Source of the DNA: Scenedesmus sp. PABB004
Taxonomy: Eukaryota
Reading direction: 5' to 3'
Assembly (NCBI GenBank): GCA_014905635.1
Contig: JABVCE010000002.1
Coordinates: 1,612,001 to 1,676,000, forward strand
Length of the DNA stretch: 64,000 bases
A model generated the notes under the pieces. The model had not been told where the DNA came from. It saw only the letters and a list, made by a program, of their open reading frames with translations, and did not search any database. The position numbers and the translations under genes were made by a program. Of the stretch, positions 9,405 to 57,641 are shown one piece after another. How positions within the stretch are numbered: the first letter of the stretch is position 1; each line of letters starts with the position of its first letter.

Positions 9405-9450
<46 letters not shown>

Positions 9451-20024: not shown

Positions 20025-20059
<35 letters not shown>

Positions 20060-25443: not shown

Positions 25444-25516
25444 GGGCGGTGCGATCGCTGTAACGCGTGGTTCAAGGTGTCGACCAGCGGCGCAGGGCTC
25501 CCGCAGGCCATGCGCC

Positions 25517-25931
25517 AGGAGCTGGAGGCTGGAGCTGGCGGCGGCAGCAGCGGCAGCGTCAGCGACCCCGGCGTCGTGGCTAGCGCGGCGGCCCCTCGGG
25601 CTGCTGACGCAGGCGCGGCGGTCAGCATCAGCGATAGCGGCGTCACGGCTGATACGGCGGCCCCTCGGGCTGATGATGTCAGCGCGGCGGTCAGCGTCAG
25701 CAGCGTCTCTGCTGGTGCGGCGGCCCCTCGGGCTGCCGTTACCGGCGCGGCGAGTCGGTGTGCAGCACTGGAGCAGGCTCGGCGTTATCTGCTTGGTGAC
25801 TTGCTGCAGGATCAGCTTGCTGTTCACTCTGTGGCAGATTATGTGATGGACATCTGGAAGATGCGGGCTACCGTCCTTAAGGGGCGCGGGACCAATGGGC
25901 GCGAGCCTGTGGTGTAACTATCTTTATCTTT
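25517..25931 (+). mobile_element. 5'-truncated non-LTR retroelement, family A copy 1, (TATCTT)n tail
   Basis: Flanked by direct repeat ATGCGCC (25510-25516 / 25932-25938). Ends TGTAAC-TATCTTTATCTTT. ORF end YLLGD...DYVMDIWKMR resembles a LINE ORF2 C-terminus. Confidence 0.65.
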
Positions 25932-26109
25932 ATGCGCCGCCCGCCGCCGGCGGGCTGCGCCGCCGGGGTCCGCCGCCGGCGGCCGCGCTGCGCCGCGGGC
26001 CGCGCGCCGCCCGCGCGCGCGCCGCTCGGCGGCGCCGCGGCGCAGCGCTGCCGTGCGCCGTTTTTGCCTGCCCCGCCGCCCTGCAGAGCGGGGGTGCGGG
26101 GCTCCCACA

Positions 26110-26921
26110 TGCGCATGCTTGCGCGCTGGCTGCGCACCTGCGTGCGGCTGGTGTTGAGATGGCGGCCAGCGGCAGCCAGGAGCTGGAGGCTAGAGCTGGC
26201 GGCGGCAGCAGCGGCAGCGTCAGCGACCCCGGCGTCGTGGCTAGCGCGGCGGCCCCTCGGGCTGCTGACGCAGGCGCGGCGGTCAGCATCAGCGATAGCG
26301 GCGTCGCGGCTGATACGGCGGCCCCTCGGGCTGCTGATGTCAGCGCGGCGGACAGCGTCAGCAGCGTCGCTGCTGGTGCGGCGGCCCCTCGGGCTGCCGT
26401 TACCAGCGCGGCGAGTCGGTGTGCAGCACTGGATAAAGATAAAGATAAAGATAGTTACACCACAGGCTCGCGCCCATTGGTCCCGCGCCCCTTAAGGACG
26501 GTGTCCCGCATCTTCCAGATGTCCATCACATAATCTGCCACAGAGTGAACAGCAAGCTGATCCTGCAGCAGGTCACCAAGCAGATAACGCCGAGCCTGCT
26601 CCAATGCTGCACACCGACTCGCCGCGCCGGTAACGGCAGCCCGAGGGGCCGCCGCACCAGCAGAGACGCTGCTGACGCTGACCGCCGCGCTGACATCATC
26701 AGCCCGAGGGGCCGCCGTATCAGCCGTGACGCCGCTACCGCTGATGCTGACCGCCTGGAGCAGGCTCGGCGTTATCTGCTTGGTGACCTGCTGCAGGATC
26801 AGCTTGCTGTTCACTCTGTGGCAGATTATGTGATGGACATCTGGAAGATGCGGGACACCGTCCTAAAGGGGCGCGGCATGGGCGCGAGCCTGTGGTGTAA
26901 CTATCTTTGTCTTTGTCTTTG
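26110..26921 (+). mobile_element. Non-LTR family A copy 2, interrupted by copy 3
   Basis: TSD TCCCACA (26103-26109 / 26922-26928) in satellite sequence; tail TATCTT(TGTCTT)n. Confidence 0.65.
26434..26754 (-). mobile_element. Non-LTR family A copy 3, nested antisense in copy 2
   Basis: Reverse complement of the family A 3' end with an (AAGATA)n tail; flanked by CTGGA (26429-26433 / 26755-26759). Confidence 0.65.
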
Positions 26922-28412
26922 TCCCACAGGCTGCCCGGCCACGGGCTGCGCCGCCGGGGTCCGCCGCCGGCGGCCGCGCTGCGCCGCGGGCCGCGCGCCG
27001 CCGCGCGCGCGCCGCTCGGCGGCGCCGCGGTGCAGCGCTGCCGTGCACCGTTTTGCCTGCCCCGCCGCCCCTGCGGAGCGGGGGTGCGGGGCTCCCACAG
27101 GCTGCCCGGCCACGGGCTGCGCCGCCGGGGTCCGCCGCCGGCGGCCGCGCTGCGCCGCGGGCCGCGCGCCGCCCGCGCGCGCGCCGCTCGGCGGCGCCGC
27201 GGCGCAGCGCTGCCGTGCGCCGTTTTGCCTGCCCCGCCGCCCCTGCGGAGCGGGGGTGCGGGGCTCCCACAGGCTGCCCGGCCACGGGCTGCGCCGCCGG
27301 GGTCCGCCGCCGGCGGCCGCGCTGCGCCGCGGGCCGCGCGCCGCCCGCGCGCGCGCCGCTTGCGGCGCCGCGGCGCAGCGCTGCCGTGCGCCGTTTTGCC
27401 TGCCCCGCCGCCCTGCGGAGCGGGGTGCGGGGCTCCCACAGGCTGCCCGGCCACGGGCTGCGCCGCCGGGGTCCGCCGCCGGCGGCAGCGCAGCGCCGCG
27501 GGCCGCGCGCCGCCCGCGCGAGCGCCGCTCGGCGGCGCCGCGGCGCAGCGCTGCCGTGCGCCGTTTTGCCTGCCCCGCCGCCCCTGCGGAGCGGGGGTGC
27601 GGGGCTCCCACAGGCTGCCCGGCCACGGGCTGCGCCGCCGGGGTCCGCCGCCGGCGGCCGCGCTGCGCCGCGGCCGCGCGCCGCCCGCGCGCGCGCCGCT
27701 TGGCGGCGCCGCGGCGCAGCGCTGCCGTGCGCCGTTTTGCCTGCCCCGCCGCCCCTGCGGAGCGGGGGTGCGGGGCTCCCACAGGCTGCCCGGCCACGGG
27801 CTGCGCCGCCGGGGTCCGCCGCCGGCGGCAGCGCAGCGCCGCGGGCCGCGCGCCGCCCGCGCGAGCGCCGCTCGGCGGCGCCGCGGCGCAGCGCTGCCGT
27901 GCGCCGTTTTGCCTGCCCCGCCGCCCCTGCGGAGCGGGGGTGCGGGGCTCCCACAGGCTGCCCGGCCACGGGCTGCGCCGCCGGGGTCCGCCGCGGCGGC
28001 CGCGCAGCGCCGCGGGCCGCGCGCCGCCCGCGCGAGCGCCGCTCGGCGGCGCCGCGGCGCAGCGCTGCCGTGCGCCGTTTTGCCTGCCCCGCCGCCCCTG
28101 CGGTTCGGGGGTGCGGGGCTCCCACAGGCTGCCCGGCCACGGGCTGCGCCGCCGGGGTCCGCCGCCGGCGGCGCGCTGCGCCGCGGGCCGCGCGCCGCCC
28201 GCGCCGCGCGCCGCTCGGCGGCGCCGCGGCGCAGCGCTGCCGTTCGCCGTTTTGCCTGCCCGCCGCCCCTGCGGAGCGGGGGTGCGGGGCTCCCACAGGC
28301 TGCCCGGCCACGGGCTGCGCCGCCGGGGTCCGCCGCCGGCGGCCACGCTGCGCCGCGGGCCGCGCGCCGCCCGCGCGCGCGCCGCTCGGCGGCGCCGCGG
28401 CGCAGCGCTGCC

Positions 28413-28775
28413 TGATGAGAGTGCGTGTTTTCGGCCGCACACTCACCCCATTGCGTGCATGGAGCCTAAAGGAAGCTACGCGGAACATTGGGCCTTAGTT
28501 GGGCTCTTGTGGAAGGTGCTAACCGCGGTGGAAGCTGCTTACGGCGCAGCTACCGGCAGCCGCCGAGAAGCTGCGATTACCGATACCGTTTCGGCTATAT
28601 AGCTCCGTGCACCCGCCCCGTTTGCCTAAGGAGTCTCTTCACCACGCACATGTAACCTTTGCTCCTTCACTCGTGTCTCCGTGCTCTCCGTGCTCTCTCG
28701 TTGGCCAACCGCCGCTCTCCGCCGTTGTCGACTCGCTCCTCTAGCCGGCAACAACCGCGCCTACTCCGACCAAGA
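28413..28775 (+). mobile_element. Copia solo LTR 1
   Basis: Matches the LTRs at 41238 and 47056; TGATGAG...CCAAGA; TSD CTGCC on both sides. Confidence 0.9.
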
Positions 28776-30158
28776 CTGCCGTGCGCCGTTTTGCCTGCCC
28801 CGCCGCCCCTGCGGAGCGGGGGTGCGGGGCTCCCACAGGCTGCCCGGCCACGGGCTGCGCCGCCGGGGTCCGCCGCCGGCGGCCGCGCTGCGCCGCGGGC
28901 CGCGCGCCGCCCGCGCGCGCGCCGCTCGGCGGCGCCGCGGCGCAGCGCTGCCGTGCGCCGTTTTGCCTGCCCTCCGCCCTGCGGAGCGGGGTGCGGGGCT
29001 CCCACAGGCTGCCCGGGCCACGGGCTGCGCCGCCGGGGTCCGCCGCCGCCGGCCGCGCTGCGCCGCGGGCGCGCGCCCGCCCGCGCGCGCGCGCCGCTCG
29101 GCGGCGCCGCGGCGCAGCGCTGCCGTGCGCCGTTTTGCCTGCCCCGCCGCCCCTGCGGAGCGGGGGTGCGGGGCTCCCACAGGCTGCCCGGCCACGGGCT
29201 GCGCCGCCGGGGTCCGCCGCCGCGGGGCAGCGCAGCGCCGCGGGCCGCGCGCCGCCCGCGCGCGCGCCGCTCGGCGGCGCCGCGGCGCAGCGCTGCCGTG
29301 CGCCGTTTTGCCTGCCCCGCCGCCCCTGCGGAGCGGGGGTGCGGGGCTCCCACAGGCTGCCCGGCCACGGGCTGCGCCGCCGGGGTCCGCGCCGGCCCGG
29401 CCGCGCTGCGCCGCGGGCCGCGCGCCGCCCGCGCGCGCGCCGCTCGGCGGCGCCGCGGCGCAGCGCTGCCGTGCGCCGTTTTGCCTGCCCCGCCGCCCCT
29501 GCGGAGCGGGGGTGCGGGGCTCCCACAGGCTGCCCGGCCACGGGCTGCGCCGCCGGGGTCCGCCGCCGGCGGCGCGCAGCGCCGCGGGCCGCGCGCCGCC
29601 CGCGCGCGCGCCGCTCGGCGGCGCCGCGGCGCAGCGCTGCCGTGCGCCGTTTTGCCTGCCCCGCCGCCCCTGCGGAGCGGGGGTGCGGGGCTCCCACAGG
29701 CTGCCCGGCCACGGGCTGCGCCGCCGGGGTCCGCCGCCGGCGGCGCGCAGCGCCGCGGGCCGCGCGCCGCCCGCGCCGCGAGCGCCGCTCGGCGGCGCCG
29801 CGGCGCAGCGCTGCCGTGCGCCGTTTTGCCTGCCCCGCCGCCCCTGCGGAGCGGGGGTGCGGGGCTCCCACAGGCTGCCCGGCCACGGGCTGCGCCGCCG
29901 GGGTCCGCCGCCGGCGGCCGCGCTGCGCCGCGGGCCGCGCGCCGCCCGCGCGCGCGCCGCTCGGCGGCGCCGCGGCGCAGCGCTGCCGTTCGCCGTTTTG
30001 CCTGCCCCGCCGCCCCTGCGGAGCGGGGGTGCGGGGCTCCCACAGGCTGCCCGGCCACGGGCTGCGCCGCCGGGTCCGCCGCCGGCGGCCACGCTGCGCC
30101 GCGGGCCGCGCGCCGCCCGCGCGCGCGCCGCTCGGCGGCGCCGCGGCGCAGCGCTGCC

Positions 30159-30521
30159 TGATGAGAGTGCGTGTTTTCGGCCGCACACTCACCCATTGCG
30201 TGCATGGAGCCTAAAGAAGCTACGCCGAACATTGGGCCTTAGTTGGGCTCTTGTGGAGGTGCTAACCGCGGTGGAAGCTGCTTCGGCGCAGCTACCGGCA
30301 GCCGCCGAGAAGCTGCCGATTACCGATACCGTTTCGCTATATATGCTCCGTGCCACCCGCCGCCGTTTGCCTAAGGGAGTCTCTTCACCACGCACATGTA
30401 ACCTTTGCTCCTTCACTCGTGTCTCGTGCTCTCCGTGCTCTCTCGTTGGCCAACCGCCGCTGCTCGCGTTGTCGCGCTCGCTCCGCTAGCCGGCAACAAC
30501 CGCCGCCTACTCCGACCAAGA
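30159..30521 (+). mobile_element. Copia solo LTR 2 (same TSD and monomer position as solo LTR 1)
   Basis: TGATGAG...CCAAGA; TSD CTGCC; many small indels relative to the other LTRs. Confidence 0.85.
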
Positions 30522-33500
30522 CTGCCGTGCGCCGTTTTGCCTGCCCCGCCGCCCCTGCGGAGCGGGGGTGCGGGGCTCCCACAGGCTGCCCGGCCACGGG
30601 CTGCGCCGCCGGGGTCCGCCGCCGGCGGCCGCGCTGCGCCGCGGGCCGCGCGCCGCCCGCGCGCGCGCCGCTCGGCGGCGCCGCGGCGCAGCGCTGCCGT
30701 GCGCCGTTTTGCCTGCCCCGCCGCCCCTGCGGAGCGGGGGTGCGGGGCTCCCACAGGCTGCCCGGCCACGGGCTGCGCCGCCGGGGTCCGCCGCCGGCGG
30801 CCGCGCTGCGCCGCGGGCCGCGCGCCGCCCGCGCGCGCGCCGCTCGGCGGCGCCGCGGCGCAGCGCTGCCGTGCGCCGTTTTGCCTGCCCCGCCGCCCCT
30901 GCGGAGCGGGGGTGCGGGGCTCCCACAGGCTGCCCGGCCACGGGCTGCGCCGCCGGGGTCCGCCGCCGGCGGCCGCGCTGCGCCGCGGCCGCGCGCCGCC
31001 CGCGCGCGCGCCGCTCGGCGGCGCCGCGGCGCAGCGCTGCCGTGCGCCGTTTTGCCTGCCCCGCCGCCCCTGCGGAGCGGGGGTGCGGGGCTCCCACAGG
31101 CTGCCCGGCCACGGGCTGCGCCGCCGGGGTCCGCCGCCGGCGGCCGCGCTGCGCCGCGGGCCGCGCGCCGCCCGCGCGCGCGCCGCTCGGCGGCGCCGCG
31201 GCGCAGCGCTGCCGTGCGCCGTTTTGCCTGCCCCGCCGCCCCTGCGGAGCGGGGGTGCGGGGCTCCCACAGGCTGCCCGGCCACGGGCTGCGCCGCCGGG
31301 GTCCGCCGCCGGCGGCCGCGCTGCGCCGCGGGCCGCGCGCCGCCCCGCGCGCGCGCGCTCGGCGGCGCCGCGGCGCAGCGCTGCCGTGCGCCGTTTTGCC
31401 TGCCCCGCCGCCCCTGCGGAGCGGGGTGCGGGGCTCCCACAGGCTGCCCGGCCACGGGCTGCGCCGCCGGGGTCCGCCGCCGGCGGCCGCGCTGCGCCGC
31501 GGGCCGCGCGCCGCCCGCGCGCGCGCCGCTCGGCGGCGCCGCGGCGCAGCGCTGCCGTGCGCCGTTTTGCCTGCCCCGCCGCCCCTGCGGAGCGGGGGTG
31601 CGGGGCTCCCACAGGCTGCCCGGCCACGGGCTGCGCCGCCGGGGTCCGCCGCCGGCGGCCGCGCTGCGCCGCGGGCCGCGCGCCGCCCGCGCGCGCGCCG
31701 CTCGGCGGCGCCGCGGCGCAGCGCTGCCGTGCGCCGTTTTGCCTGCCCCGCCGCCCCTGCGGAGCGGGGGTGCGGGGCTCCCACAGGCTGCCCGGCCACG
31801 GGCTGCGCCGCCGGGGTCCGCCGCCGGCGGCCGCGCTGCGCCGCGGGCCGCGCGCCGCCCGCGCGCGCGCCGCTCGGCGGCGCCGCGGCGCAGCGCTGCC
31901 GTGCGCCGTTTTGCCTGCCCCGCCGCCCCTGCGGAGCGGGGGTGCGGGGCTCCCACAGGCTGCCCGGCCACGGGCTGCGCCGCCGGGGGTCCGCCGCCGG
32001 CGGCCGCGCTGCGCCGCGGGCCGCGCGCCGCCCGCGCGCGCGCCGCTCGGCGGCGCCGCGGCGCAGCGCTGCCGTGCGCCGTTTTGCCTGCCCCGCCGCC
32101 CCTGCGGAGCGGGGTGCGGGGCTCCCACAGGCTGCCCGGCCACGGGCTGCGCCGCCGGGGTCCGCCGCCGGCGGCCGCGCTGCGCCGCGGGCCGCGCGCC
32201 GCCCGCGCGCGCGCCGCTCGGCGGCGCCGCGGCGCAGCGCTGCCGTGCGCCGTTTTGCCTGCCCCGCCGCCCCTGCGGAGCGGGGGTGCGGGGCTCCCAC
32301 AGGCTGCCCGGCCACGGGCTGCGCCGCCGGGGTCCGCCGCCGGCGGCCGCGCTGCGCCGCGGGCCGCGCGCCGCCCGCGCGCGCGCCGCTCGGCGGCGCC
32401 GCGGCGCAGCGCTGCCGTGCGCCGTTTTGCCTGCCCCGCCGCCCCTGCGGAGCGGGGGTGCGGGGCTCCCACAGGCTGCCCGGCCACGGGCTGCGCCGCC
32501 GGGGTCCGCCGCCGGCGGCCGCGCTGCGCCGCGGGCCGCGCGCCGCCGCGCGCGCGCCGCTCGGCGGCGCCGCGGCGCAGCGCTGCCGTGCGCCGTTTTG
32601 CCTGCCCCGCCGCCCCTGCGGAGCGGGGGTGCGGGGCTCCCACAGGCTGCCCGGCCACGGGCTGCGCCGCCGGGGTCCGCCGCCGGCGGCCGCGCTGCGC
32701 CGCGGGCCGCGCGCCGCCCGCGCGCGCGCCGCTCGGCGGCGCCGCGGCGCAGCGCTGCCGTGCGCCGTTTTGCCTGCCCCGCCGCCCCTGCGGAGCGGGG
32801 GTGCGGGGCTCCCACAGGCTGCCCGGCCACGGGCTGCGCCGCCGGGGTCCGCCGCCGGCGGCCGCGCTGCGCCGCGGGCCGCGCGCCGCCCGCGCGCGCG
32901 CCGCTCGGCGGCGCCGCGGCGCAGCGCTGCCGTGCGCCGTTTTGCCTGCCCCGCCGCCCCTGCGGAGCGGGGGTGCGGGGCTCCCACAGGCTGCCCGGCC
33001 ACGGGCTGCGCCGCCGGGGTCCGCCGCCGGCGGCCGCGCTGCGCCGCGGGCCGCGCGCCGCCCGCGCGCGCGCCGCTCGGCGGCGCCGCGGCGCAGCGCT
33101 GCCGTGCGCCGTTTTGCCTGCCCCGCCGCCCCTGCGGAGCGGGGGTGCGGGGCTCCCACAGGCTGCCCGGCCACGGGCTGCGCCGCCGGGTCCGCCGCCG
33201 GCGGCCGCGCTGCGCCGCGGGCCGCGCGCCGCCCGCGCGCGCGCCGCTCGGCGGCGCCGCGGCGCAGCGCTGCCGTGCGCCGTTTTGCCTGCCCCGCCGC
33301 CCCTGCGGAGCGGGGGTGCGGGGCTCCCACAGGCTGCCCGGCCACGGGCTGCGCCGCCGGGGTCCGCCGCCGGCGGCCGCGCTGCGCCGCGGGCCGCGCG
33401 CCGCCCGCGCGCGCGCCGCTCGGCGGCGCCGCGGCGCAGCGCTGCCGTGCGCCGTTTTGCCTGCCCCGCCGCCCCTGCGGAGCGGGGGTGCGGGGCTCCC

Positions 33501-36500
33501 ACAGGCTGCCCGGCCACGGGCTGCGCCGCCGGGGTCCGCCGCCGGCGGCCGCGCTGCGCCGCGGGCCGCGCGCCGCCCGCGCGCGCGCCGCTCGGCGGCG
33601 CCGCGGCGCAGCGCTGCCGTGCGCCGTTTTGCCTGCCCCGCCGCCCCTGCGGAGCGGGGGTGCGGGGCTCCCACAGGCTGCCCGGCCACGGGCTGCGCCG
33701 CCGGGGTCCGCCGCCGGCGGCCGCGCTGCGCCGCGGGCCGCGCGCCGCCCGCGCGCGCGCCGCTCGGCGGCGCCGCGGCGCAGCGCTGCCGTGCGCCGTT
33801 TTGCCTGCCCCGCCGCCCCTGCGGAGCGGGGGTGCGGGGCTCCCACAGGCTGCCCGGCCACGGGCTGCGCCGCCGGGGTCCGCCGCCGGCGGCCGCGCTG
33901 CGCCGCGGGCCGCGCGCCGCCCCGCGCGCGCGCCGCTCGGCGGCGCCGCGGCGCAGCGCTGCCGTGCGCCGTTTTGCCTGCCCCGCCGCCCCTGCGGAGC
34001 GGGGGTGCGGGGCTCCCACAGGCTGCCCGGCCACGGGCTGCGCCGCCGGGGTCCGCCGCCGGCGGCCGCGCTGCGCCGCGGGCCGCGCGCCGCCCGCGCG
34101 CGCGCGCGCTCGGCGGCGCCGCGGCGCAGCGCTGCCGTGCGCCGTTTTGCCTGCCCCGCCGCCCCTGCGGAGCGGGGGTGCGGGGCTCCCACAGGCTGCC
34201 CGGCCACGGGCTGCGCCGCCGGGGTCCGCCGCCGGCGGCCGCGCTGCGCCGCGGGCCGCGCGCCGCCCGCGCGCGCGCCGCTCGGCGGCGCCGCGGCGCA
34301 GCGCTGCCGTGCGCCGTTTTGCCTGCCCCGCCGCCCCTGCGGAGCGGGGGTGCGGGGCTCCCACAGGCTGCCCGGCCACGGGCTGCGCCGCCGGGGTCCG
34401 CCGCCGGCGGCCGCGCTGCGCCGCGGGCCGCGCGCCGCCCGCGCGCGCGCCGCTCGGCGGCGCCGCGGCGCAGCGCTGCCGTGCGCCGTTTTGCCTGCCC
34501 CGCCGCCCCTGCGGAGCGGGGGTGCGGGGCTCCCACAGGCTGCCCGGCCACGGGCTGCGCCGCCGGGGTCCGCCGCCGGCGGCCGCGCTGCGCCGCGGGC
34601 CGCGCGCCGCCCGCGCGCGCGCCGCTCGGCGGCGCCGCGGCGCAGCGCTGCCGTGCGCCGTTTTGCCTGCCCCGCCGCCCCTGCGGAGCGGGGGTGCGGG
34701 GCTCCCACAGGCTGCCCGGCCACGGGCTGCGCCGCCGGGGTCCGCCGCCGGCGGCCGCGCTGCGCCGCGGGCCGCGCGCCGCCCGCGCGCGCGCCGCTCG
34801 GCGGCGCCGCGGCGCAGCGCTGCCGTGCGCCGTTTTGCCTGCCCCGCCGCCCCTGCGGAGCGGGGGTGCGGGGCTCCCACAGGCTGCCCGGCCACGGGCT
34901 GCGCCGCCGGGGTCCGCCGCCGGCGGCCGCGCTGCGCCGCGGGCCGCGCGCCGCCCGCGCGCGCGCCGCTCGGCGGCGCCGCGGCGCAGCGCTGCCGTGC
35001 GCCGTTTTGCCTGCCCCGCCGCCCCTGCGGAGCGGGGGTGCGGGGCTCCCACAGGCTGCCCGGCCACGGGCTGCGCCGCCGGGGTCCGCCGCCGGCGGCC
35101 GCGCTGCGCCGCGGGCCGCGCGCCGCCCGCGCGCGCGCCGCTCGGCGGCGCCGCGGCGCAGCGCTGCCGTGCGCCGTTTTGCCTGCCCCGCCGCCCCTGC
35201 GGAGCGGGGGTGCGGGGCTCCCACAGGCTGCCCGGCCACGGGCTGCGCCGCCGGGGTCCGCCGCCGGCGGCCGCGCTGCGCCGCGGGCCGCGCGCCGCCC
35301 GCGCGCGCGCCGCTCGGCGGCGCCGCGGCGCAGCGCTGCCGTGCGCCGTTTTGCCTGCCCCGCCGCCCCTGCGGAGCGGGGGTGCGGGGCTCCCACAGGC
35401 TGCCCGGCCACGGGCTGCGCCGCCGGGGTCCGCCGCCGGCGGCCGCGCTGCGCCGCGGGCCGCGCGCCGCCCGCGCGCGCGCCGCTCGGCGGCGCCGCGG
35501 CGCAGCGCTGCCGTGCGCCGTTTTGCCTGCCCCGCCGCCCCTGCGGAGCGGGGGTGCGGGGCTCCCACAGGCTGCCCGGCCACGGGCTGCGCCGCCGGGG
35601 TCCGCCGCCGGCGGCCGCGCTGCGCCGCGGGCCGCGCGCCGCCCGCGCGCGCGCCGCTCGGCGGCGCCGCGGCGCAGCGCTGCCGTGCGCCGTTTTGCCT
35701 GCCCCGCCGCCCCTGCGGAGCGGGGGTGCGGGGCTCCCACAGGCTGCCCGGCCACGGGCTGCGCCGCCGGGGTCCGCCGCCGGCGGCCGCGCTGCGCCGC
35801 GGGCCGCGCGCCGCCCGCGCGCGCGCCGCTCGGCGGCGCCGCGGCGCAGCGCTGCCGTGCGCCGTTTTGCCTGCCCCGCCGCCCCTGCGGAGCGGGGGTG
35901 CGGGGCTCCCACAGGCTGCCCGGCCACGGGCTGCGCCGCCGGGGTCCGCCGCCGGCGGCCGCGCTGCGCCGCGGGCCGCGCGCCGCCCGCGCGCGCGCCG
36001 CTCGGCGGCGCCGCGGCGCAGCGCTGCCGTGCGCCGTTTTGCCTGCCCCGCCGCCCCTGCGGAGCGGGGGTGCGGGGCTCCCACAGGCTGCCCGGCCACG
36101 GGCTGCGCCGCCGGGGTCCGCCGCCGGCGGCCGCGCTGCGCCGCGGGCCGCGCGCCGCCCGCGCGCGCGCCGCTCGGCGGCGCCGCGGCGCAGCGCTGCC
36201 GTGCGCCGTTTTGCCTGCCCCGCCGCCCCTGCGGAGCGGGGGTGCGGGGCTCCCACAGGCTGCCCGGCCACGGGCTGCGCCGCCGGGGTCCGCCGCCGGC
36301 GGCCGCGCTGCGCCGCGGGCCGCGCGCCGCCCGCGCGCGCGCCGCTCGGCGGCGCCGCGGCGCAGCGCTGCCGTGCGCCGTTTTGCCTGCCCCGCCGCCC
36401 CTGCGGAGCGGGGGTGCGGGGCTCCCACAGGCTGCCCGGCCACGGGCTGCGCCGCCGGGGTCCGCCGCCGGCGGCCGCGCTGCGCCGCGGGCCGCGCGCC

Positions 36501-41591: not shown

Positions 41592-41603
41592 GGTTATGAG
41601 CCC
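41592..41603 (+). promoter_or_regulatory. Primer-binding site complementary to the tRNAiMet anticodon arm (second copy at 50501-50512)
   Basis: GGTTATGAGCCC directly follows the 5' LTR; its reverse complement GGGCUCAUAACC contains the CAU anticodon loop. Confidence 0.8.
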
Positions 41604-46634: not shown

Positions 46635-47095
46635 GTGTTGCGTCCGCGTGGGAGTGATGAGAGTGCGTGTTTTCGGCCGCACACTCACCCCATTCCGTCG
46701 CAGCCTCCACCACCGAGGCCGAGTACATGGCCGCCTCCGCTGCGGTCAAGGAGGCCCTCTGGCTGCGCAAGCTCATGAGCGACCTCAAGGTCAACATCGG
46801 CGCCATCGACATCCTCTCCGACAACCAGGGTGCGATCAAGCTGCTGCGCAACCCCGTGTCCTCGCAGCGCTCGAAGCACATTGACGTCGCGCACCACTTT
46901 GCGCGCGAGCGTGTGGCCCGCGGCGAGGTCACGTTCCACTACGTGCCCACGGCCGACAACATCGCCGACGCGCTCACCAAGCCGCTGGCGCTGTCCAAGT
47001 TTGTGGCGTGCCGCACCGGCATGGGCATGGTGTGAGTGTTGCGTCCGCGTGGGAGTGATGAGAGTGCGTGTTTTCGGCCGCACACTCACCCCATT
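46294..47095 (+). repeat. 401-bp tandem duplication of RNase H end + PPT region + first 40 nt of LTR in Copia copy 1
   Basis: 46294-46694 is repeated at 46695-47095; partial LTR at 46655-46694. Confidence 0.93.
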
Positions 47096-47893: not shown

Positions 47894-47979
47894 TTTTTTT
47901 TTTATGTTACAATGGGTGACCAGACAAGGACCGAGGCCCAGGGGCAGCCCATTGAAAAAAACTCCAACGGGAGGAGCGC
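47894..47979 (-). mobile_element. Short 3' end of poly(A)-tailed L1-like family B
   Basis: T-tract plus TTACA, then the reverse complement of ~56855-56930. Confidence 0.8.
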
Positions 47980-50900
47980 CGCCGGGGTCCGCCGCCGGCG
48001 GCCGCGCGGCGCCCGCGCGCGCGCCGCTCGGCGGCGCCGCGGCGCAGTGCTGCCGTGCGCCGTTTTGCCTGCCCCGCCGCCCCTGCGGAGCGGGGGTGCG
48101 GGGCTCCCACAGGCTGCCCGGCCACGGGCTGCGCCGCCGGGGTCCGCCGCCGGCGGCCGCGCTGCGCCGCGGGCCGCGCGCCGCCCGCGCGCGCGCCGCT
48201 CGGCGGCGCCGCGGCGCAGCGCTGCCGTGCGCCGTTTTGCCTGCCCCTCCGCCCCTGCGGAGCGGGGGTGCGGGGCTCCCACAGGCTGCCCGGCCACGGG
48301 CTGCGCCGCCGGGGTCCGCCGCCGGCGGCCGCGCTGCGCCGCGGGCCGCGCGCCGCCCGCGCGCGCGCCGCTCGGCGGCGCCGCGGTGCAGCGCTGCCGT
48401 GCGCCGTTTTGCCTGCCCCTCCGCCCCTGCGGAGCGGGGGTGCGGGGCTCCCACAGGCTGCCCGGCCACGGGCTGCGCCGCCGGGGTCCGCCGCCGGCGG
48501 CCGCGCTGCGCCGCGGGCCGCGCGCCGCCCGCGCGCGCGCCGCTCGGCGGCGCCGCGGTGCAGCGCTGCCGTGCGCCGTTTTGCCTGCCCCGCCGCCCCT
48601 GCGGAGCGGGGGTGCGGGGCTCCCACAGGCTGCCCGGCCACGGGCTGCGCCGCCGGGGTCCGCCGCCGGCGGCCGCGCTGCGCCGCGGGCCGCGCGCCGC
48701 CCGCGCGCGCGCCGCTCGGCGGCGCCGCGGCGCAGCGCTGCCGTGCGCCGTTTTGCCTGCCCCGCCGCCCCTGCGGAGCGGGGGTGCGGGGCTCCCACAG
48801 GCTGCCCGGCCACGGGCTGCGCCGCCGGGGTCCGCCGCCGGCGGCCGCGCTGCGCCGCGGGCCGCGCGCCGCCCGCGCGCGCGCCGCTCGGCGGCGCCGC
48901 GGCGCAGCGCTGCCGTGCGCCGTTTTGCCTGCCCCGCCGCCCCTGCGGAGCGGGGGTGCGGGGCTCCCACAGGCTGCCCGGCCACGGGCTGCGCCGCCGG
49001 GGTCCGCCGCCGGCGGCCGCGCTGCGCCGCGGGCCGCGCGCCGCCCGCGCGCGCGCCGCTCGGCGGCGCCGCGGCGCAGCGCTGCCGTGCGCCGTTTTGC
49101 CTGCCCCGCCGCCCCTGCGGAGCGGGGGTGCGGGGCTCCCACAGGCTGCCCGGCCACGGGCTGCGCCGCCGGGGTCCGCCGCCGGCGGCCGCGCGCCGCC
49201 CGCGCGCGCGCCGCTCGGCGGCGCCGCGGCGCAGCGCTGCCGTTTTTTTTTTTGTTTTTTTTTTTTTACAAGGGGTGACCAGACAAGGACCGAGGCCCAG
49301 GGGCAGCCCATTGAAAAAAGCTCCAACGGGAAGAGCGCAGCAACCCCTCGTGAAAAACCGCGCCCCGGCGCCCCCCGAGAGGGGGCCCACACATCACCCA
49401 ACGGCACAGCCAGAGGCCAACGCCCAACGGGCGCCCAAGGAGACCAGGTGATGCCCCGCAATCAAAGGGGCAGCAGCAGATCAGGCCGCACACCCCCGTC
49501 CGCTGCGGCGAGCCGCACCGGGCATCGGTGCAGCGAGGTGCACCAGCTCCAAGCCTGCCGCCAGACGCAGGGTACGGCCCGGTTTTGCCAGCCTGCAGCT
49601 GCCCGGCGGCGCAGGGCCGGCGCCCTGCTGTCACCAGCACGCAGACGACACCACCCTGCACGCAGCGTCAGTGGAGAGCGCCAAGCGGCTGCTGGACGGT
49701 GCCGTCGCGCCGTTCTGCCTGGCCAGCGGCGCGCAGCTCAACCTGGCCAAGTGCAAGGGCATGCTGCTGGGCGACCACCCGGCGCTGCAGCTGCAGCCGG
49801 ATGGCAGCGGGCAGCTGGTCGAGTGCAGCACGGGCGTGTGCTTCCCGGACACAGAGCAGGCGCCGATCAGGCACCTGGACGTGCTGCTCTCTGCCACCGG
49901 CGTCGAGCGGCACGCGGCGCAGCTTTACCGCGAGCGGCTGCGCACCATCACCTGCCGCATCAGCAGGACCCCGTGGCGGCGGCGGCGGCGGCGGCGGCGG
50001 CGCAGCGCGGCGGCTAGCTGCAGGGGCCGGGGGGGTCCGCGGCCGGGCTTGCTGCGACCCCGGCTGGCTGCGTGTCGCGCCTCTTCTGCAGCGTGCAAGG
50101 TTGGGCGGTGTCCGCCCGTGCCGCGGGGCTGGTGTCTGCGTGTTTGTGATGAGAGTGCGTGTTTTCGGCCGCACACTCACCCCATTGCGTGCATGGAGCC
50201 TAAAGGAAGCTACTCGGAACATTGGGCCTTAGTTGGGCTCTTGTGGAAGGTGCTAACCGCGGTGGAAGCTGCTTACGGCGCAGCTACCGGCAGCCGCCGA
50301 GAAGCTGCGATTACCGATACCGTTTCGGCTATATAGCTCCGTGCGCCCGCCCCGTTTGCCTAAGGAGTCTCTTCACCACGCACATGTAACCTTTGCTCCT
50401 TCACTTGTGTCTCCGTGCTCTCTCGTTGGCCAACCGCTGCTCTCCGCCGTTGTCGACTCGCTCCTCTAGCCGGCAACAACCGCACCTACTCCGACCAAGA
50501 GGTTATGAGCCCATCCCCGGTGCTCTAAAGGCATCGCGGAGGCTTCGCGCGCATCGCTCCGGCAACTCGACAACTCCGCGGAGCTCCGGAGGCCTCCGTC
50601 AAGCGGCCCAAAAAGAAGGCCCCAGATTCGATCCTGCGACCTCCACCGTCCTATTCGAGAGCCCTATTGTCTACTTGGCGCTTGGCAGAGGCCATCGCCC
50701 CTTGTCCGCGACTTCTTTTACTTGAGTCGCCCTCGTCAAACGCAGTAAATCGCGCCGCGCTTGCTCGCGCGTGCTCGTTTGCGCTCCGTCGCGCTCCGTC
50801 GCGCTTCCCGCGCCGCGCTCGATCTACTCGGCGCCGCGCGCTCGACGTCGGCCCTTCTCGCGCCGACTTTGCCTCTTCTCACGCTCAAGGGCCTCGGCCC

Positions 50901-51443
50901 TTCGCCCGTCCGCCCGCCCGCGCCGCTCACAGGTGTACGTACGACCCGGCCGTGCGCATCGGTCATCAAGGCGGGCGTCCGTGCACCTTGGGCGTGCGTG
51001 TCTACACGGCGGCGTGACGTTGGAGGACATCCCTCGACCCGCGCCCCTACGACCCTCGGCGCCCTCGACCCTCGCGCCCCTACGACTCTCGGCGCCCTCG
51101 ACCCTCGCGCCCCTACGACCCTCGGCGCCGTTGACCAACTCGTAACGCGCGCCGCGCTCGCGCCCGGCCGCTCTTGCGCCCGCGCGTGCGCCTCGGCTAC
51201 GCTCGCACGCTACGCTAGCGCGCGCCTCGTGTCTCCAAACCCGAGCTAACTTCAAAGGGGCCTTGCCCCCTTCGCCGTCCGCCCGCGCCCGCGCCGTACG
51301 TAGGTGTGCGTACGTCTCGGCCGCGTGCATCGGACATCTAGGCGGGGCGTCCGTACACCTCGTACGTGCGCGCGTCTACGGCGCGGCGTGACGTGGGAGA
51401 CATCTGCCAACAACTCCATCGGCCCGCCAACGCGGCTACCGTC

Positions 51444-54400
51444 ATGATGGACTTTGAAAAGTTTGGCGTTGAGCGATTCACCGGCTCCAACTACGTCACG
51501 TGGAGCACCAAGATTACCTTCTACCTCAAGCTCAAGGGCTTCTATGGCGCGCTCATCGACGCGCCGCCGCCCGGCAACGACGCCGACGCCGCGCCCGCGC
51601 GCGACGCCGCGCGGGACGACAAGGCCCTCGCCGCCATCGTCCTCTCCGTCGACAACAAGATCTTGCCACTCATCCAAACGTGCACCACCGCCAAGGAGGC
51701 GTGGGACAAGCTCGCCAACATGTACCACACCCAAAACACGGCAAGCATCGTGCGCTTCAAGCGCGAGTTGAGCACGCTCGCCAAGGGCAACACCGAGACC
51801 ATCACGGCCTTTGCCGACCGCGCGTACGCGCTCAAGGACAACCTCATCTCCGCCGGCGCCACGGTGGACGACATGGACATCTCGCTCGCCATGCTCGACA
51901 AGCTCCCGAGCGCCTACGAGGTCAACAAGAAGATCATCATGAGCAAGAAGCCCTTCCCCACGCTCGAGGAGGTCATCTCCGAGCTCTTGACCGTGGAGGC
52001 GCAAACCCCGGCCAACACCGAGAAGGCCTACTTTGCGACCGCGCCGCGGCCCAAGTTCAAGCCGCTCAACAAGACGTTCAACCCGCGCTTCAACAAGCCC
52101 TTCAACCCGCGCGCGCCCATGCTCGGCGCGTCGCGCTTCGTCAACCCGCCGCGCCCGTTCAACGGCGGCGGCTCGCCCGGCGGCAACCGGCCGCGCTTCG
52201 GCGCGTCCAAGGACGCCAAAGACGTGTGCTACTATTGCAAGAAGCCCGGCCACTTCATCGGTGAGTGCCGCGAGCGGGCCGCGGTCGAGGCGCGCAAGGG
52301 CACGCCCGACACCGAGCGGCGCGAGGTGGCGTGGACCGCCACCACGCTCGCTCCCGACTACGACAACCCGGACTACGCGTGCACGTGGTTCATCGACTCG
52401 GGGGCCGAGCGCCACATCACCAACGACGCCGGCGACCTCAACAATCCCAAGCCGTGCTCGACCAAGGTCATCGTGGGCACCGGCGAGGTGGTCGCCGCCG
52501 AGCTCGAGGGCGACGCCATCTTGCACGAGTCCAACGTCATCTCGCGGCGCATCGTGCTCCGCCGCGTGCTCTACATCCCCGGCTTTGCGGCCAAGCTCGT
52601 CTCCATCAAGATGGCCAAGCTCGCCGGCGCCACGTTCATCATGGAGGGCAACAAGTGCGCCGTGCGCATGGGCGGCGAGACGATCGTCACCGCCATCGAC
52701 GCGCCCAACGGCATCCCGTGCATCGTGAGCAACACGCTCCGCGGCTCCCCGAGCCCGGCGCTCATTGCCAAAGAGGCGCCCGAGGTGTGGCACGCGCGCT
52801 TTGGCCACCTCGGCTACGCCAACCTCGAGCGCGCCGCCAAGCACGGCATGGTGACCGGCATGGACCTCACGACCACCGACTTCAAGGCGCTCCCCATGTG
52901 CGAGCCGTGCGTGATGGGCAAGACGACGCGCCTCCCCTTCGGTGAGTCCGCGACGGTGTACGACACGCCGCTCGCGCTCGTGAGCATGGACGTGTGCGGC
53001 CCCATGACCGAGCTCTCTTACGGCGGCGCCAAGTACGCCGCGACCTTCATCGACCACGCGACGGGCTACTCCATCGTGCGCACGCTCAAGAGCAAGGCCG
53101 ACGTCACGCCGGCCGTCAAGGAGGTGCTCACCTACATGGAGAAGCAAACCGACGCCCACGTCAAGGCCGTCCGCACCGACAACGGCTCCGAGTACGTTAA
53201 CGCCGACCTCTCCGGCTTCTTCAAGGACAAGGGCATCGCGCACCAAAAGACCATGCCCTACACGCCCGAGCAAAACGGCACCGCCGAGCGGCTCAACCGC
53301 ACGCTCCTCAACAAGGTGCTCCCCATGATCTACGCCGCCGAGCTCCCGCCCGCGGCGTGGGGTGAGGCGATCATGACGGCCAACCACCTCCGCAACCTCT
53401 CTCCCGTGAGCGGCAAGCCCAAGACGCCGTTCGAGGCCTTCTTCGGCCGCAAGCCCGACGTGTCAACGCTCCGCGTCTTTGGCGCCACGGCCTACGCCCA
53501 CGTGCCCAAGGAGAAGAGGACCAAGCTCGAGCCGCACGCCGAGAAGGGCATCATGGTGGGCTACCCGGCCTTTGGCAAGGGCTACCGCATCCTCATGCCC
53601 GACGGCAACATCAAGTCGAGCCGCAACGTCGTCTTCGACGAGAGCAAGGTGCTCTCCAAGAGCTTCGCCAACTACAAGTCCCCGACGCTCATCGACCCCG
53701 ACATCACCCGCTACGCCGCCGAGAAGTTCCCGGCGGACGACGCCTTTGAGGACGAGCCCGACTCCGGCGCGCACGACGGCGCGCCGCCGAGCGGCTCCCC
53801 GCCGGGCACCCCGGGCGGCTCCCCGCCCGCGAGCCCCGGCGGCTCCCCGCCCTCGAGCCCGGGCGGCTCGCCGCCGCCCGCGCCGAGCCCGGCGCCCGAG
53901 AGCAACGACAACATGCCGGCGCCGACCGCCGGCGGCACCGACTCCACCACCGGCGGCACCATCACGCGCTCGGGGCGCGTGTCGCGCAAGCCCGGTGAGT
54001 GGTGGAACGCCGCCGCCGCCGCGCACTACGCGGGGCAGATCTTGCCCGACCCGGCCACGCGCACCGAGGCGCTCGGCCGGCTCGACGCGTCCAAGTGGGA
54101 CGACGCCATGAACGAGGAGATCGCCGCCCACGTGGCCAACAACACGTGGGAGCTCGACGTGCCGCCCGCCGGCGTCAAGATCATCCCGACCAAGTGGGTC
54201 CTCACGACCAAGACCGACCTCGCCGGCAACATCGAGCGCTACAAGGGCCGCATCGTCGCCAAGGGCTTCCACCAGATCGAGGGCATCGACTACGACGAGG
54301 TCTTCGCCCCCGTCGGCAAGTACGCCACGCTGCGCGCGGTGCTCGCGCTCGCCGCTGCGCACGACTACGAGATCATCCAGATCGACATTAAGAACGCCTT

Positions 54401-55574
54401 CCTCCAAGGCAACCTCGAGGAGGAGGTGTGGATCAGCCAGCCCGAGGGCTACGACGACGGCTCCGGCCGCGCGTGCCGCCTGATCAAGGCGCTCTACGGC
54501 CTCAAGCAGGCCCCGCGCGCGTGGCACTCGCGCCTGCACGAGGAGCTCACCAAGATGGGCTTCGCGCCGTCCAAGGCCGACGCATCGCTCTACGTCGGCA
54601 CCTCCGGCGCGTACATCCTCATCTACGTCGACGACATCCTCATCATTGCGCGCAACTGCGCGCTCGCCGAGTCGGTCAAGGCGGAGCTCTTTGCCGCCTT
54701 CAAGACCCGCGACCTCGGCGAGGTGAGCCAGTACCTCGGCATGCACATCACGCGCGACCGCATCAACAAGACCATCAAGATCACCAACGAGAAGATGGTG
54801 ACCGAGCTCGTCTCCAAGTACGGGCTCGCCGACTGCGCGCCCCGCGACATCCCCGTGAGCCTCGGCACCAAGCTCACCAAGGACAACGGCGACCCGCTCG
54901 ACATCGCGGCCTACCCCTACACGTCGCTCGTGGGAGCGCTCCTCTACCTCTCCATCACGGTGCGCCCCGACATCGCCTTTGCGGTGAGCGCGTTGACACG
55001 CTTCATGTCCTGCCCCACGACCGTGCACTGGGGCGTGGCCAAGGGCGTGCTCCGCTACCTGGCCGGCACCACCAACATTGGCATCATCTACGGCGGCATC
55101 AAGGGCAGCCTGGACCTCAACGGCATGTGTGACTCGGACTACGCGGCCGACCTCGACACGCGCCGCTCGACCACCGGCTACGTCTTCACCCTCAACGGCG
55201 GCGCAATCACCTGGTCCAGCAAGAAGCAGCAGACCGTCGCAGCCTCCACCACCGAGGCCGAGTACATGGCCGCCTCCGCTGCGGTCAAGGAGGCCCTCTG
55301 GCTGCGCAAGCTCATGAGCGACCTCAAGGTCAACATCGGCGCCATCGACATCCTCTCCGACAACCAGGGTGCGATCAAGCTGCTGCGCAACCCCGTGTCC
55401 TCGCAGCGCTCGAAGCACATTGACGTCGCGCACCACTTTGCGCGCGAGCGTGTGGCCCGCGGCGAGGTCACGTTCCACTACGTGCCCACGGCCGACAACA
55501 TCGCCGACGCGCTCACCAAGCCGCTGGCGCTGTCCAAGTTTGTGGCGTGCCGCACCGGCATGGGCATGGTGTGA
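51444..55574 (+). CDS. Copia gag-pol polyprotein, copy 2
   Basis: Same protein as copy 1 apart from two differences I could see (AFAGR/AFADR, RKPSE/RKPGE). Confidence 0.97.
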   Translation: MMDFEKFGVERFTGSNYVTWSTKITFYLKLKGFYGALIDAPPPGNDADAAPARDAARDDKALAAIVLSVDNKILPLIQTCTTAKEAWDKLANMYHTQNTASIVRFKRELSTLAKGNTETITAFADRAYALKDNLISAGATVDDMDISLAMLDKLPSAYEVNKKIIMSKKPFPTLEEVISELLTVEAQTPANTEKAYFATAPRPKFKPLNKTFNPRFNKPFNPRAPMLGASRFVNPPRPFNGGGSPGGNRPRFGASKDAKDVCYYCKKPGHFIGECRERAAVEARKGTPDTERREVAWTATTLAPDYDNPDYACTWFIDSGAERHITNDAGDLNNPKPCSTKVIVGTGEVVAAELEGDAILHESNVISRRIVLRRVLYIPGFAAKLVSIKMAKLAGATFIMEGNKCAVRMGGETIVTAIDAPNGIPCIVSNTLRGSPSPALIAKEAPEVWHARFGHLGYANLERAAKHGMVTGMDLTTTDFKALPMCEPCVMGKTTRLPFGESATVYDTPLALVSMDVCGPMTELSYGGAKYAATFIDHATGYSIVRTLKSKADVTPAVKEVLTYMEKQTDAHVKAVRTDNGSEYVNADLSGFFKDKGIAHQKTMPYTPEQNGTAERLNRTLLNKVLPMIYAAELPPAAWGEAIMTANHLRNLSPVSGKPKTPFEAFFGRKPDVSTLRVFGATAYAHVPKEKRTKLEPHAEKGIMVGYPAFGKGYRILMPDGNIKSSRNVVFDESKVLSKSFANYKSPTLIDPDITRYAAEKFPADDAFEDEPDSGAHDGAPPSGSPPGTPGGSPPASPGGSPPSSPGGSPPPAPSPAPESNDNMPAPTAGGTDSTTGGTITRSGRVSRKPGEWWNAAAAAHYAGQILPDPATRTEALGRLDASKWDDAMNEEIAAHVANNTWELDVPPAGVKIIPTKWVLTTKTDLAGNIERYKGRIVAKGFHQIEGIDYDEVFAPVGKYATLRAVLALAAAHDYEIIQIDIKNAFLQGNLEEEVWISQPEGYDDGSGRACRLIKALYGLKQAPRAWHSRLHEELTKMGFAPSKADASLYVGTSGAYILIYVDDILIIARNCALAESVKAELFAAFKTRDLGEVSQYLGMHITRDRINKTIKITNEKMVTELVSKYGLADCAPRDIPVSLGTKLTKDNGDPLDIAAYPYTSLVGALLYLSITVRPDIAFAVSALTRFMSCPTTVHWGVAKGVLRYLAGTTNIGIIYGGIKGSLDLNGMCDSDYAADLDTRRSTTGYVFTLNGGAITWSSKKQQTVAASTTEAEYMAASAAVKEALWLRKLMSDLKVNIGAIDILSDNQGAIKLLRNPVSSQRSKHIDVAHHFARERVARGEVTFHYVPTADNIADALTKPLALSKFVACRTGMGMV

Positions 55575-56035
55575 GTGTTGCGTCCGCGTGGGAGTGATGA
55601 GAGTGCGTGTTTTCGGCCGCACACTCACCCCATTCCGTCGCAGCCTCCACCACCGAGGCCGAGTACATGGCCGCCTCCGCTGCGGTCAAGGAGGCCCTCT
55701 GGCTGCGCAAGCTCATGAGCGACCTCAAGGTCAACATCGGCGCCATCGACATCCTCTCCGACAACCAGGGTGCGATCAAGCTGCTGCGCAACCCCGTGTC
55801 CTCGCAGCGCTCGAAGCACATTGACGTCGCGCACCACTTTGCGCGCGAGCGTGTGGCCCGCGGCGAGGTCACGTTCCACTACGTGCCCACGGCCGACAAC
55901 ATCGCCGACGCGCTCACCAAGCCGCTGGCGCTGTCCAAGTTTGTGGCGTGCCGCACCGGCATGGGCATGGTGTGAGTGTTGCGTCCGCGTGGGAGTGATG
56001 AGAGTGCGTGTTTTCGGCCGCACACTCACCCCATT
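55234..56035 (+). repeat. 401-bp tandem duplication in Copia copy 2
   Basis: Same junction CACCCCATT|CCGTCGCAG at 55634/55635. Confidence 0.93.
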
Positions 56036-57641
56036 GCGTGCATGGAGCCTAAAGGAAGCTACTCGGAACATTGGGCCTTAGTTGGGCTCTTGTGGAAGGT
56101 GCTAACCGCGGTGGAAGCTGCTTACGGCGCAGCTACCGGCAGCCGCCGAGAAGCTGCGATTACCGATACCGTTTCGGCTATATAGCTCCGTGCGCCCGCC
56201 CCGTTTGCCTAAGGAGTCTCTTCACCACGCACATGTAACCTTTGCTCCTTCACTTGTGTCTCCGTGCTCTCTCGTTGGCCAACCGCTGCTCTCCGCCGTT
56301 GTCGACTCGCTCCTCTAGCCGGCAACAACCGCACCTACTCCGACCAAGAGTTTGTCGTCGCGCGGCGAGGGGGCTGCAGCCGATGGGGCCGGCCCCTGGC
56401 GCCGCCGGCGTGTTTGGCGGCTGCACGCGCTCCGTGCGCGGCGGCTTGGCGTGCTGCCTGCCCGGTGGGGCGGCTTTCTCATCGGTGCGCGGCTTTCTCA
56501 GGGGTTTTTGCAGCAAAGCCAACTGCTGCCCCCTGGTGTGTGCGTGTGTCGTCGCGCGGCGCGGGGGCTGATGCCGCTGAGGCCGGCCCCTGCCGCCGCC
56601 AGCGTGGATGGCGTTTGCGCGTGATCTCTGCGCGGAGGCTTGGAGCCGGTGCACCTCGCTGCACCGATGCCCGGTGCGGCTCGCCGCACCGGAAGGGGGG
56701 TGTGCGGCCTGATCTGCTGCTGCCCCTTTGATTGCGGGGCATCACCTGGTCTCCTTGGGCGCCCGTTGGGCGTTGGCCTCTGGCTGTGCCGTTGGGTGAT
56801 GTGTGTGCCCCCTCTCGGGGGGCGCCGGGGCGCGGTTTTTCACGAGGGGTTGCTGCGCTCTTCCCGTTGGAGTTTTTTTCAATGGGCTGCCCCTGGGCCT
56901 CGGTCCTTGTCTGGTCACCCATTGTAACAAAAAAAAAAAAAGCTCCAAGCCTCCGCGCAGAGATCACGCGCAAACGCCATCCACGCTGGCGGCGGCAGGG
57001 GCCGGCCTCAGCGGCATCAGTCCCCGCGCCGCGCGACGACACACGCACACACCAGGGGGCAGCAGTTGGCTTCCGTTTTGCCTGCCCCGCCGCCCGTGCG
57101 GAGCGGGGGTGCGGGGCTCCCACAGGCTGCCCGGCCACGGGCTGCGCCGCCTGTGTCCGCCGCCGGCGGCCGCGCGCCGCCCGCGCGCGCGCCGCTCGGC
57201 GGCGCCGCGGCGCAGCGCTGCCGTGCGCCGTTTTGCCTGCCCCGCCGCCCCTGCGGAGCGGGGGTGCGGGGCTCCCACAGGCTGCCCGGCCACGGGTTGC
57301 GCCGCCGGGGTCCGCCGCCGGCGGCCGCGCGCCGCCCGCGCGCGCGCGCCGCTCGGCGGCGCCGCGGCGCAGCGCTGCCGTGCGCCGTTTTGCCTGCCCC
57401 GCCGCCCCTGCGGAGCGGGGGTGCGGGGCTCCCACAGGCTGCCCGGCCACGGGCTGCGCCGCCGGGGTCCGCCGCCGGCGGCCGCGCTGCGCCGCGGGCC
57501 GCGGTGCGGGGCTGGGGGCACCGGGTGCTGCCCGTGCGCGGGGAGGGGGGGGGGGCAAGTGGTGGCGGTCAACTTACAGAGGGTCTCCACCATGGCCGCC
57601 TCGTGGCGGCACCGCGCCTCCCCGCCCGGCACGCGCCTCGC

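Follow-up and report, generated by a model that had tools for sequence, protein, structure and literature searches.

The 64,000-nucleotide stretch analysed here (the window), which comprises positions 1,612,001 to 1,676,000 of the forward strand of contig JABVCE010000002.1 in the assembly GCA_014905635.1 of Scenedesmus sp. PABB004, contains an island of repeats at 25951-57503 that we consider a candidate regional centromere of its chromosome; on the analogies set out below, we think the chances for and against this reading about even. The island is 31,553 bp in length and consists of a 172-bp satellite (50.5%), Ty1/Copia elements and their long terminal repeats (LTRs; 41.5%) and other retroelement pieces (about 8%). 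It has the form of the green-algal type of centromere, i.e. a gene-free block of repeats and transposons, tens of kb in size, with genes on both sides.

The centromere reading is plausible because the size of the island, its position between genes and its transposon classes resemble those of published green-algal centromeres. In the literature consulted, to which all our statements on cited sources refer, these centromeres are described as gene-flanked, transposon-rich blocks with LTR/Copia, long interspersed nuclear element (LINE)/L1 and RTE-X components, and their average size is about 200 kb in Chlamydomonas, 27 kb in Chromochloris zofingiensis, 23 kb in Coccomyxa and 52 kb in Chlorella sp. 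SLA-04 (PMC11005252). The same source gives an average of 39 kb for newly assembled Chlorella, of one species or of a set, and reports that chromatin immunoprecipitation sequencing (ChIP-seq) of CENH3 backs transposon-rich centromeres in Chlorella sorokiniana NS4-2 (PMC11005252).

A 172-bp satellite as the base layer of the island

The monomer unit of the satellite is 172 bp in length with a GC content of 88.4%, and BLAST of its consensus against the window located it between 25951 and 57503, on the plus strand throughout. The array sums to 15,920 bp, equivalent to 92.6 units, in 97 pieces, 87 of which are full-length monomers. Tandem Repeats Finder (TRF) reported a 172-bp array at 26922-41237 (83.0 copies, 94% matches), a second 172-bp stretch at 47410-49227 (10.6 copies) and an array of a 157-bp deletion variant at 57073-57487. 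Head-to-tail monomers of constant length, present in many copies and beyond chance, characterize satellite DNA, and with 83 copies and a TRF score of 25540 the array is of this kind.

The full-length monomers are highly uniform: 55 of the 87 equal the consensus, and 29 distinct variants were found. Most of the uniformity resides in the core, which extends over 30522-41237 (BLAST end 41235); in its part from 30577 to 41235 (10,659 bp), 50 of the 62 full monomers are identical and the others reach at least 98.3%. On the left, the array begins with a partial monomer (positions 21-172) at 25951-26102, which is 98% identical to the consensus, and continues with an edge block of variant monomers at 26922-28412 and a second edge block at 28776-30158; the left-edge monomers are 96-100% identical to the consensus and 94-99% identical among themselves. 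On the right of the core lie 2.8 monomers at 47410-47894 (BLAST start 47413), a block at 47977-49243 of which the final monomer is a deletion variant, and the right edge at 57073-57503, which resumes at monomer position 128 and is made up of the 157-bp deletion variants. The first-pass annotation of this DNA, generated by a model from the letters and a list of open reading frames (ORFs), had described about 90 head-to-tail 172-bp monomers with a near-invariant core of 10.7 kb and more variable edges, and both parts of this description hold.

The monomer phase is unbroken across the first Copia element and both solo LTRs described below. The phase survives every insertion, and the base layer of the island was originally one continuous array of nucleosome-length monomers in a single orientation. 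A higher-order repeat was sought among the monomers upstream of the two solo LTRs, where no register was seen at an offset of 8 monomers. A tandem array of the rDNA or small nuclear RNA type was ruled out, as Rfam at gathering thresholds detected no RNA family in the window.

Each monomer has 39 CpG and only 5 A and 15 T, and its sole T4 tract occupies positions 131-134. Since the monomer holds so few A and T, all six frames are open through the core (30266-41427), with stop-to-stop lengths of 3,586-3,685 codons; these could yield spurious gene models, and for the plus strand none was found in protein databases. The GC content of the window ranges from 66 to 88% in 2-kb bins. The Copia-bearing stretches (42001-56000) are the GC-poorest of the window (65.7-69.6%) and show negative GC skew, and the adjacent satellite is the richest (88%). 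If short centromeres of compact algal genomes are relatively AT-rich, it would be the Copia copies that fit this and not the satellite.

Retroelement insertions in the array

By satellite-masked self-BLAST and from the insertion junctions, we identified two full Copia elements and two solo LTRs. Element 1 (41238-47409, plus strand) has LTRs at 41238-41591 and 47056-47409, identical in 353 of 354 positions, a target-site duplication of GGCTC and an open frame at 42402-46634. Element 2 (50147-56349, plus strand) has identical LTRs (354 of 354), a target-site duplication of GTTTG and an open frame at 51342-55574. The open frame is 1410 codons long in both and encodes, in the order given by Pfam, gag, beta-barrel, integrase and RVT_2 domains; on the 1410-amino-acid product Retrotran_gag_2 was placed at 83-221, rve at 543-642 and RVT_2 at 933-1172 (E 4e-62). 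Having two LTRs, a 5-bp target-site duplication and the order gag, protease, integrase and reverse transcriptase with RVT_2, both are Ty1/Copia elements, and both are intact. An alignment of the two has 6203 columns; 43 of these differ, and 31 of the 43 are gap columns.

The solo LTRs, each 363 bp in length and on the plus strand, are located at 28413-28775 and 30159-30521. Both have the target-site duplication CTGCC at the same monomer positions (118-122), and they may represent one insertion that was later duplicated or two hits at one monomer site. Perfect 5-bp target-site duplications are thus present at all four LTR insertions. Compared with the LTRs of the full elements, the first solo LTR agrees in 349-350 of 363 columns and the second in 339-340 of 370, and the two agree with each other in 352 of 371 columns; the solo LTRs are older than the full elements.

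Both Copia copies also contain a 401-bp tandem duplication (46294-47099 and 55234-56039; 2.0 copies, 99% matches), which repeats the last approximately 114 pol codons including the stop codon. This duplication is a trait of the Copia family, because it also gives a second tblastn match for the C-termini of the PABB004 proteins. The three best database matches of the Copia polyprotein are NCBI proteins named Scenedesmus sp. PABB004. In tblastn, two of these proteins are about 99% identical per aligned block (95-99% for P0003), and P0001 is 90% identical in one gapped alignment; as they are not letter-identical to the elements of the island, they represent other copies. Three further, near-identical Copia copies are thus annotated on three PABB004 contigs (1,005,304, 4,853,734 and 107,335 bp). 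Among the shorter proteins no further PABB004-named match was obtained, the best match there being 69% identical.

The second component of the island is non-LTR material. Three poly(A)-tailed 3' ends were found, none of which carries coding sequence: an 82-bp fragment at 47895-47976 (minus strand), located at monomer position 138 where about 74 bp of satellite are missing; a fragment at 49244-49565 (minus strand, with the poly-T on the plus strand); and one at 56627-56941 (plus strand), to which the second is 96.5% identical in inverted orientation. The poly(A) or poly(T) ends lie at 47886-47895, 49244-49270 and 56928-56942. The third fragment is part of a stretch of non-LTR debris at 56350-57072, in which masked self-BLAST also revealed repeats of about 100 bp and inverted arms of 131 bp (56516-56646 and 56942-57072). 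The two minus-strand fragments that abut the satellite, at monomer positions 138 and about 124, flank its sole T4 tract, and we infer that this is the placement expected from target-primed reverse transcription on a T-rich nick. The fragments show hallmarks of LINEs: they end in poly(A), are truncated at the 5' end and, in the two cases that abut satellite, lie at a T-rich target.

A reverse-transcriptase fragment with an ADD motif lies at 49566-50000, within a piece on the plus strand (49566-50146) that continues with a (CGG)n run and unclassified sequence. Its RVT_1 match (E 0.027) falls under the Pfam curated cut-off, and its first match in the protein atlas (0.94), 'Reverse transcriptase domain-containing protein (Fragment)', is unspecific as to clade. 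Together with element 2 and the debris, this piece and the poly(A) fragment to its left form a 7.8-kb composite (49244-57072) that occupies one point of one monomer (positions 124/128). Because the composite sits at a single monomer point and is bracketed by the same 157-bp deletion-variant monomers, it is a nested insertion.

The third component is a non-LTR-like element with a microsatellite tail at the left end of the island. Its copy 1 (25514-25934, plus strand) comprises the end of an ORF, repeats of 69 bp in its interior and a 3' tail of (ATCTTT)n; the ORF, for which no Pfam family was found, stops just before the tail, and the copy adjoins the partial monomer. Masked self-BLAST identified a partial, tail-less copy at 26175-26433 (plus strand), a copy with its tail at the left at 26435-26755 (minus strand) and a (CTTTGT)n-tailed copy at 26755-26920 (plus strand).

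The inventory of the first-pass annotation (four Copia/LTR, three L1-like and three microsatellite-tailed insertions) compares well with these results. The Copia/LTR count is the same, and the (CTTTAT/CTTTGT)n-tailed copies were confirmed with one tail-less partial copy in addition; the L1-like insertions were confirmed as three poly(A)-tailed non-LTR 3' fragments, and no more closely than that. The retroelements arrived in at least two waves. The older one is represented by the two solo LTRs and the truncated non-LTR pieces, and a very recent one by the two intact Copia copies with their identical or nearly identical LTRs and intact gag-pol frames.

Repeats as uniform as these can also be produced by an assembly, in that the length of the island, its near-perfect core and the duplicated Copia element might largely result from collapse, mis-joining or polishing. 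The identical monomers (55 of 87, and 50 of 62 in the core) and the few differences between the two Copia copies are what such an artefact would leave, since variants may be lost when an assembly is polished with multi-mapped reads. Polishing could thus account for part of the perfect identity in the core, and the array length given here is the length as assembled. That artefact dominates is nevertheless very unlikely. The insertions differ in their flanks and in their target-site duplications, all of which are perfect, the monomer phase is kept across the insertions, matching 157-bp variants flank the 7.8-kb composite, and short contigs from two runs of an independent freshwater metagenome match parts of the left flank near-identically as well as parts of the left-edge element and the first monomers (18001-27264). 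We concluded from these duplications, from the unbroken phase of the monomers and from the independent contigs that the island and its insertions are real.

The two metagenome runs are DNA runs of one study, each sharing 0.10 of words; among the runs listed, no RNA sequencing run matched the window. The matches of the contigs to the left flank are nearly exact, so that this alga, or one very closely related to it, occurs in the environment. Mean word depth, which is not to be read as copy number, was about 2-4 in the unique flank, 65-258 in the left-edge element and 15.7-30.4 in the first monomers; GC bias is likely at 88% GC, and the depths, which are thus no measure of satellite abundance, at face value show no large excess. 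The contigs at 25726-26652 have loose ends that lead into other sequence and other tail variants of the microsatellite-tailed element, and further copies of this element therefore exist in other contexts in that freshwater population.

Genomic setting and weighing of the centromere reading

The flanks of the island are gene-dense and free of recognisable transposons, as the first-pass annotation had stated: Pfam analysis of 53 flank ORFs returned zero transposon families, and masked self-BLAST showed no dispersed repeat there. To the left, Pfam identified genes for Utp12 (4382-5515, plus strand) and ZPR1 (5919-7061, plus strand), a HEAT-repeat gene (7633-12471, minus strand) and an exon of the ribosomal protein L2 family (Ribosomal_L2_C; 17840-20752, plus strand). 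To the right are a class-V aminotransferase gene of the cysteine desulfurase-like kind (57642-60528, minus strand; Aminotran_5, E 7.7e-55 and 4.8e-34), of which the last coding ORF ends about 140 bp off the satellite, and a gene for an EF-G-like GTPase (GTP_EFTU/EFG_III; 60174-63505, plus strand). A codon-position periodicity of GC runs through most of the flanks, is low at 20-24 kb and is absent from the satellite.

Three further features were seen in the flanks. A (CGCCC)n microsatellite (62673-62959, 57 copies, 95% matches) lies in or beside the region of the EF-G-like GTPase gene, and a perfect 42-bp tandem duplication (7288-7374, 2.1 copies, 100%) lies near the start of the HEAT-repeat gene. 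ARAGORN predicted a tRNA-Arg(GCG) at 6268-6350 (minus strand) inside the ZPR1-like coding region; it is probably a spurious hit in GC-rich sequence, because Rfam at gathering thresholds reports no tRNA there.

These flanks bear on the idea that the island belongs to a subtelomere or to another block of repeats at a chromosome end. Green-algal subtelomeres, too, accumulate satellites and transposons (10.1101/2021.01.29.428817). Against this, conserved housekeeping genes extend over 25 kb to the left of the island and over 6.5 kb to its right, and no TTTAGGG- or TTTTAGGG-type repeat occurs anywhere in the window, so that we regard a chromosome-end origin as extremely improbable.

If the island is a centromere, its structure could be accounted for as follows. 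Unequal exchange or gene conversion would keep the core near-identical, and the edges of the array would escape homogenisation and diverge. Like that of other green algae, its centromeric chromatin would tolerate or attract retrotransposons, which would be purged from the rest of the genome with its dense genes. CENH3 nucleosomes might occupy the satellite, the Copia copies or both. A stronger version predicts that the satellite is the CENH3-binding core and that every one of the approximately 17 centromeres carries the monomer or a variant of it specific to that chromosome; this version we consider rather unlikely.

The genome of PABB004, assembled in 77 contigs, measures 39.8 Mb, contains 1.31% repeats and has a GC content of 78.5% (PMC12571836, Table 1). 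The GC content of the window fits this value, and together with the PABB004-named best matches of the Copia polyprotein it upholds the chlorophyte origin that the first-pass annotation had proposed. Chromosome-level assemblies of Scenedesmaceae comprise 17 pseudochromosomes, except in one genus, which has 16 (PMC13315243). Seventeen islands of 31.6 kb would amount to 537 kb, and the repeats of the genome (1.31% of 39.8 Mb) amount to 521 kb; this agreement, which is a consistency check and not evidence, would fit a genome in which nearly all repeats sit in such islands.

The principal alternative is that the satellite is a non-centromeric, locus-specific array serving as a transposon refuge, and that the true centromere lies elsewhere, perhaps as a cryptic or short region such as the AT-rich candidates in Auxenochlorella. 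The tandem repeat would have originated by replication slippage and unequal exchange and, as the only dispensable DNA in a gene-dense region, would have retained insertions that are purged elsewhere. We take this alternative seriously while doubting it somewhat. It is in keeping with the result that no second array of the monomer was present in the collections scanned, and with the variation of the insertion sites (monomer positions 118-122 and 170-2, and a LINE remnant), which shows that there is no strict targeting. The published chlorophyte centromeres are without satellites (PMC11005252), a repeat-poor green alga has short, non-repetitive centromere candidates (PMC12636532), and a centromere atlas preprint scores four of four green algae as 'cryptic'. 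On the other side, for every green alga with a small genome and reported centromere candidates in the literature consulted, the candidates are transposon clusters of comparable size between genes (PMC8226300, PMC11005252). One 32-kb block has received four or more retroelement lineages in two or more waves, and the 32 kb of flank none, and the repeat total of the genome is so small that few such islands can exist.

Several observations weigh directly against the reading of the island as a centromere. The satellite may be unrelated to centromere function, given that published chlorophyte centromeres lack satellites, and any non-essential array in so compact a genome would collect the surviving transposons. 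The annotated further Copia copies number only three, far below what about 17 centromeres suggest, a shortage that repeat masking before annotation could have caused. Stretches of 36 and 22 bases of the monomer had 0 matches in JGI metagenome contigs and the 22-base stretch had 0 in prokaryote genome contigs, collections that may not contain this alga. The plus-strand translation of nine monomers (516 amino acids) had no match at E <= 1e-5 among proteins of 283-903 amino acids and one weak match (30% identity) in a representative library. The dyad symmetry of the monomer is modest (z = -2.09; an equally good or better fold in 8 of 200 shuffles), and the common orientation of all four LTR insertions with the array is not significant (1 in 8 by chance).

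In the literature consulted, descriptions of green-algal centromeres speak of clusters of transposons or of regions that are short or cryptic, and not of satellite arrays (PMC8226300, PMC11005252, PMC12636532), and our search of published article texts found neither a satellite-based centromere in Chlorophyta nor a description of a Scenedesmaceae centromere. If the island is a centromere, it would be a green-algal regional centromere that joins a short, extremely GC-rich, nucleosome-length satellite with Copia and non-LTR insertions, and would widen the known centromere architectures of the green lineage by a satellite-bearing one in an alga of 40 Mb and 78.5% GC. It would also provide a compact, fully assembled case of about 32 kb for the mutual replacement of satellites and retrotransposons at centromeres, and could be of use in designing artificial chromosomes for a group of oleaginous algae. 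Should the satellite moreover be the CENH3 core at all centromeres, no satellite-based centromere would have been described in Chlorophyta before, the satellite would rank among the most GC-rich centromeric ones known, the young Copia family would be one that preferentially colonises satellite, and a transition from transposon to satellite centromeres, or the reverse, would have taken place within Sphaeropleales. If the centromere lies elsewhere, the island still offers a clear case of retroelement insertions that are nested and can be dated, in a nearly repeat-free genome, and would be of only ordinary interest.

Comparison with known centromeres

Satellite centromeres with embedded retrotransposons are known from other lineages, such as the human alpha satellite (171 bp) and Arabidopsis CEN178 with ATHILA. 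The array in PABB004 resembles them in its nucleosome-length monomer, its homogenised core with diverged edges and its interruption by LTR retrotransposons. Alpha satellite and CEN178 arrays span megabases and are typically AT-rich, whereas the array here amounts to 16 kb, has 88% GC and carries the 39 CpG per monomer mentioned above.

Among green algae, clusters of ZeppL elements are the centromeres of Chlamydomonas according to CENH3 CUT&Tag (bioRxiv 10.1101/2025.03.28.645958). For chlorophyte centromeres, the first-pass annotation had named only the Zepp-like LINE clusters of Chlamydomonas and Coccomyxa; such Zepp and ZeppL clusters are indeed published, but the picture is incomplete, as Copia-based centromeres have been described too (PMC8226300). 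The island resembles the clusters of Coccomyxa and Chlamydomonas (PMC8226300) in having 5'-truncated, poly(A)-tailed non-LTR 3' ends nested in a repeat block. It differs from them in that Zepp clusters consist mainly of self-nested copies of a single L1 family, whereas the three short non-LTR fragments found here are a minor fraction and all non-LTR pieces together make up at most about 8% of the island.

The centromeres of Chlorella (Wang et al. 2024, PMC11005252) are, like the island, gene-flanked, tens of kb in size and built from a mixture of LTR/Copia, LINE/L1 and other elements; they differ in that their authors state satellites to be absent and in that Chlorella belongs to the class Trebouxiophyceae. 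A hypomethylated dip is also reported for Chlorella centromeres. In Chromochloris zofingiensis the centromeric repeats are Copia LTR elements (PMC8226300). Its putative centromeres (Roth et al. 2017, as cited in PMC8226300 and PMC11005252) are of a pronounced single-element Copia type, with no satellite reported, whereas half of the PABB004 island is satellite and its Copia part comprises two full elements and two solo LTRs. Chromochloris belongs to the same order, Sphaeropleales, Copia elements, likened here by class and not by family homology, are a main component of its centromeres, and these average about 27 kb against 31.6 kb for the island described here.

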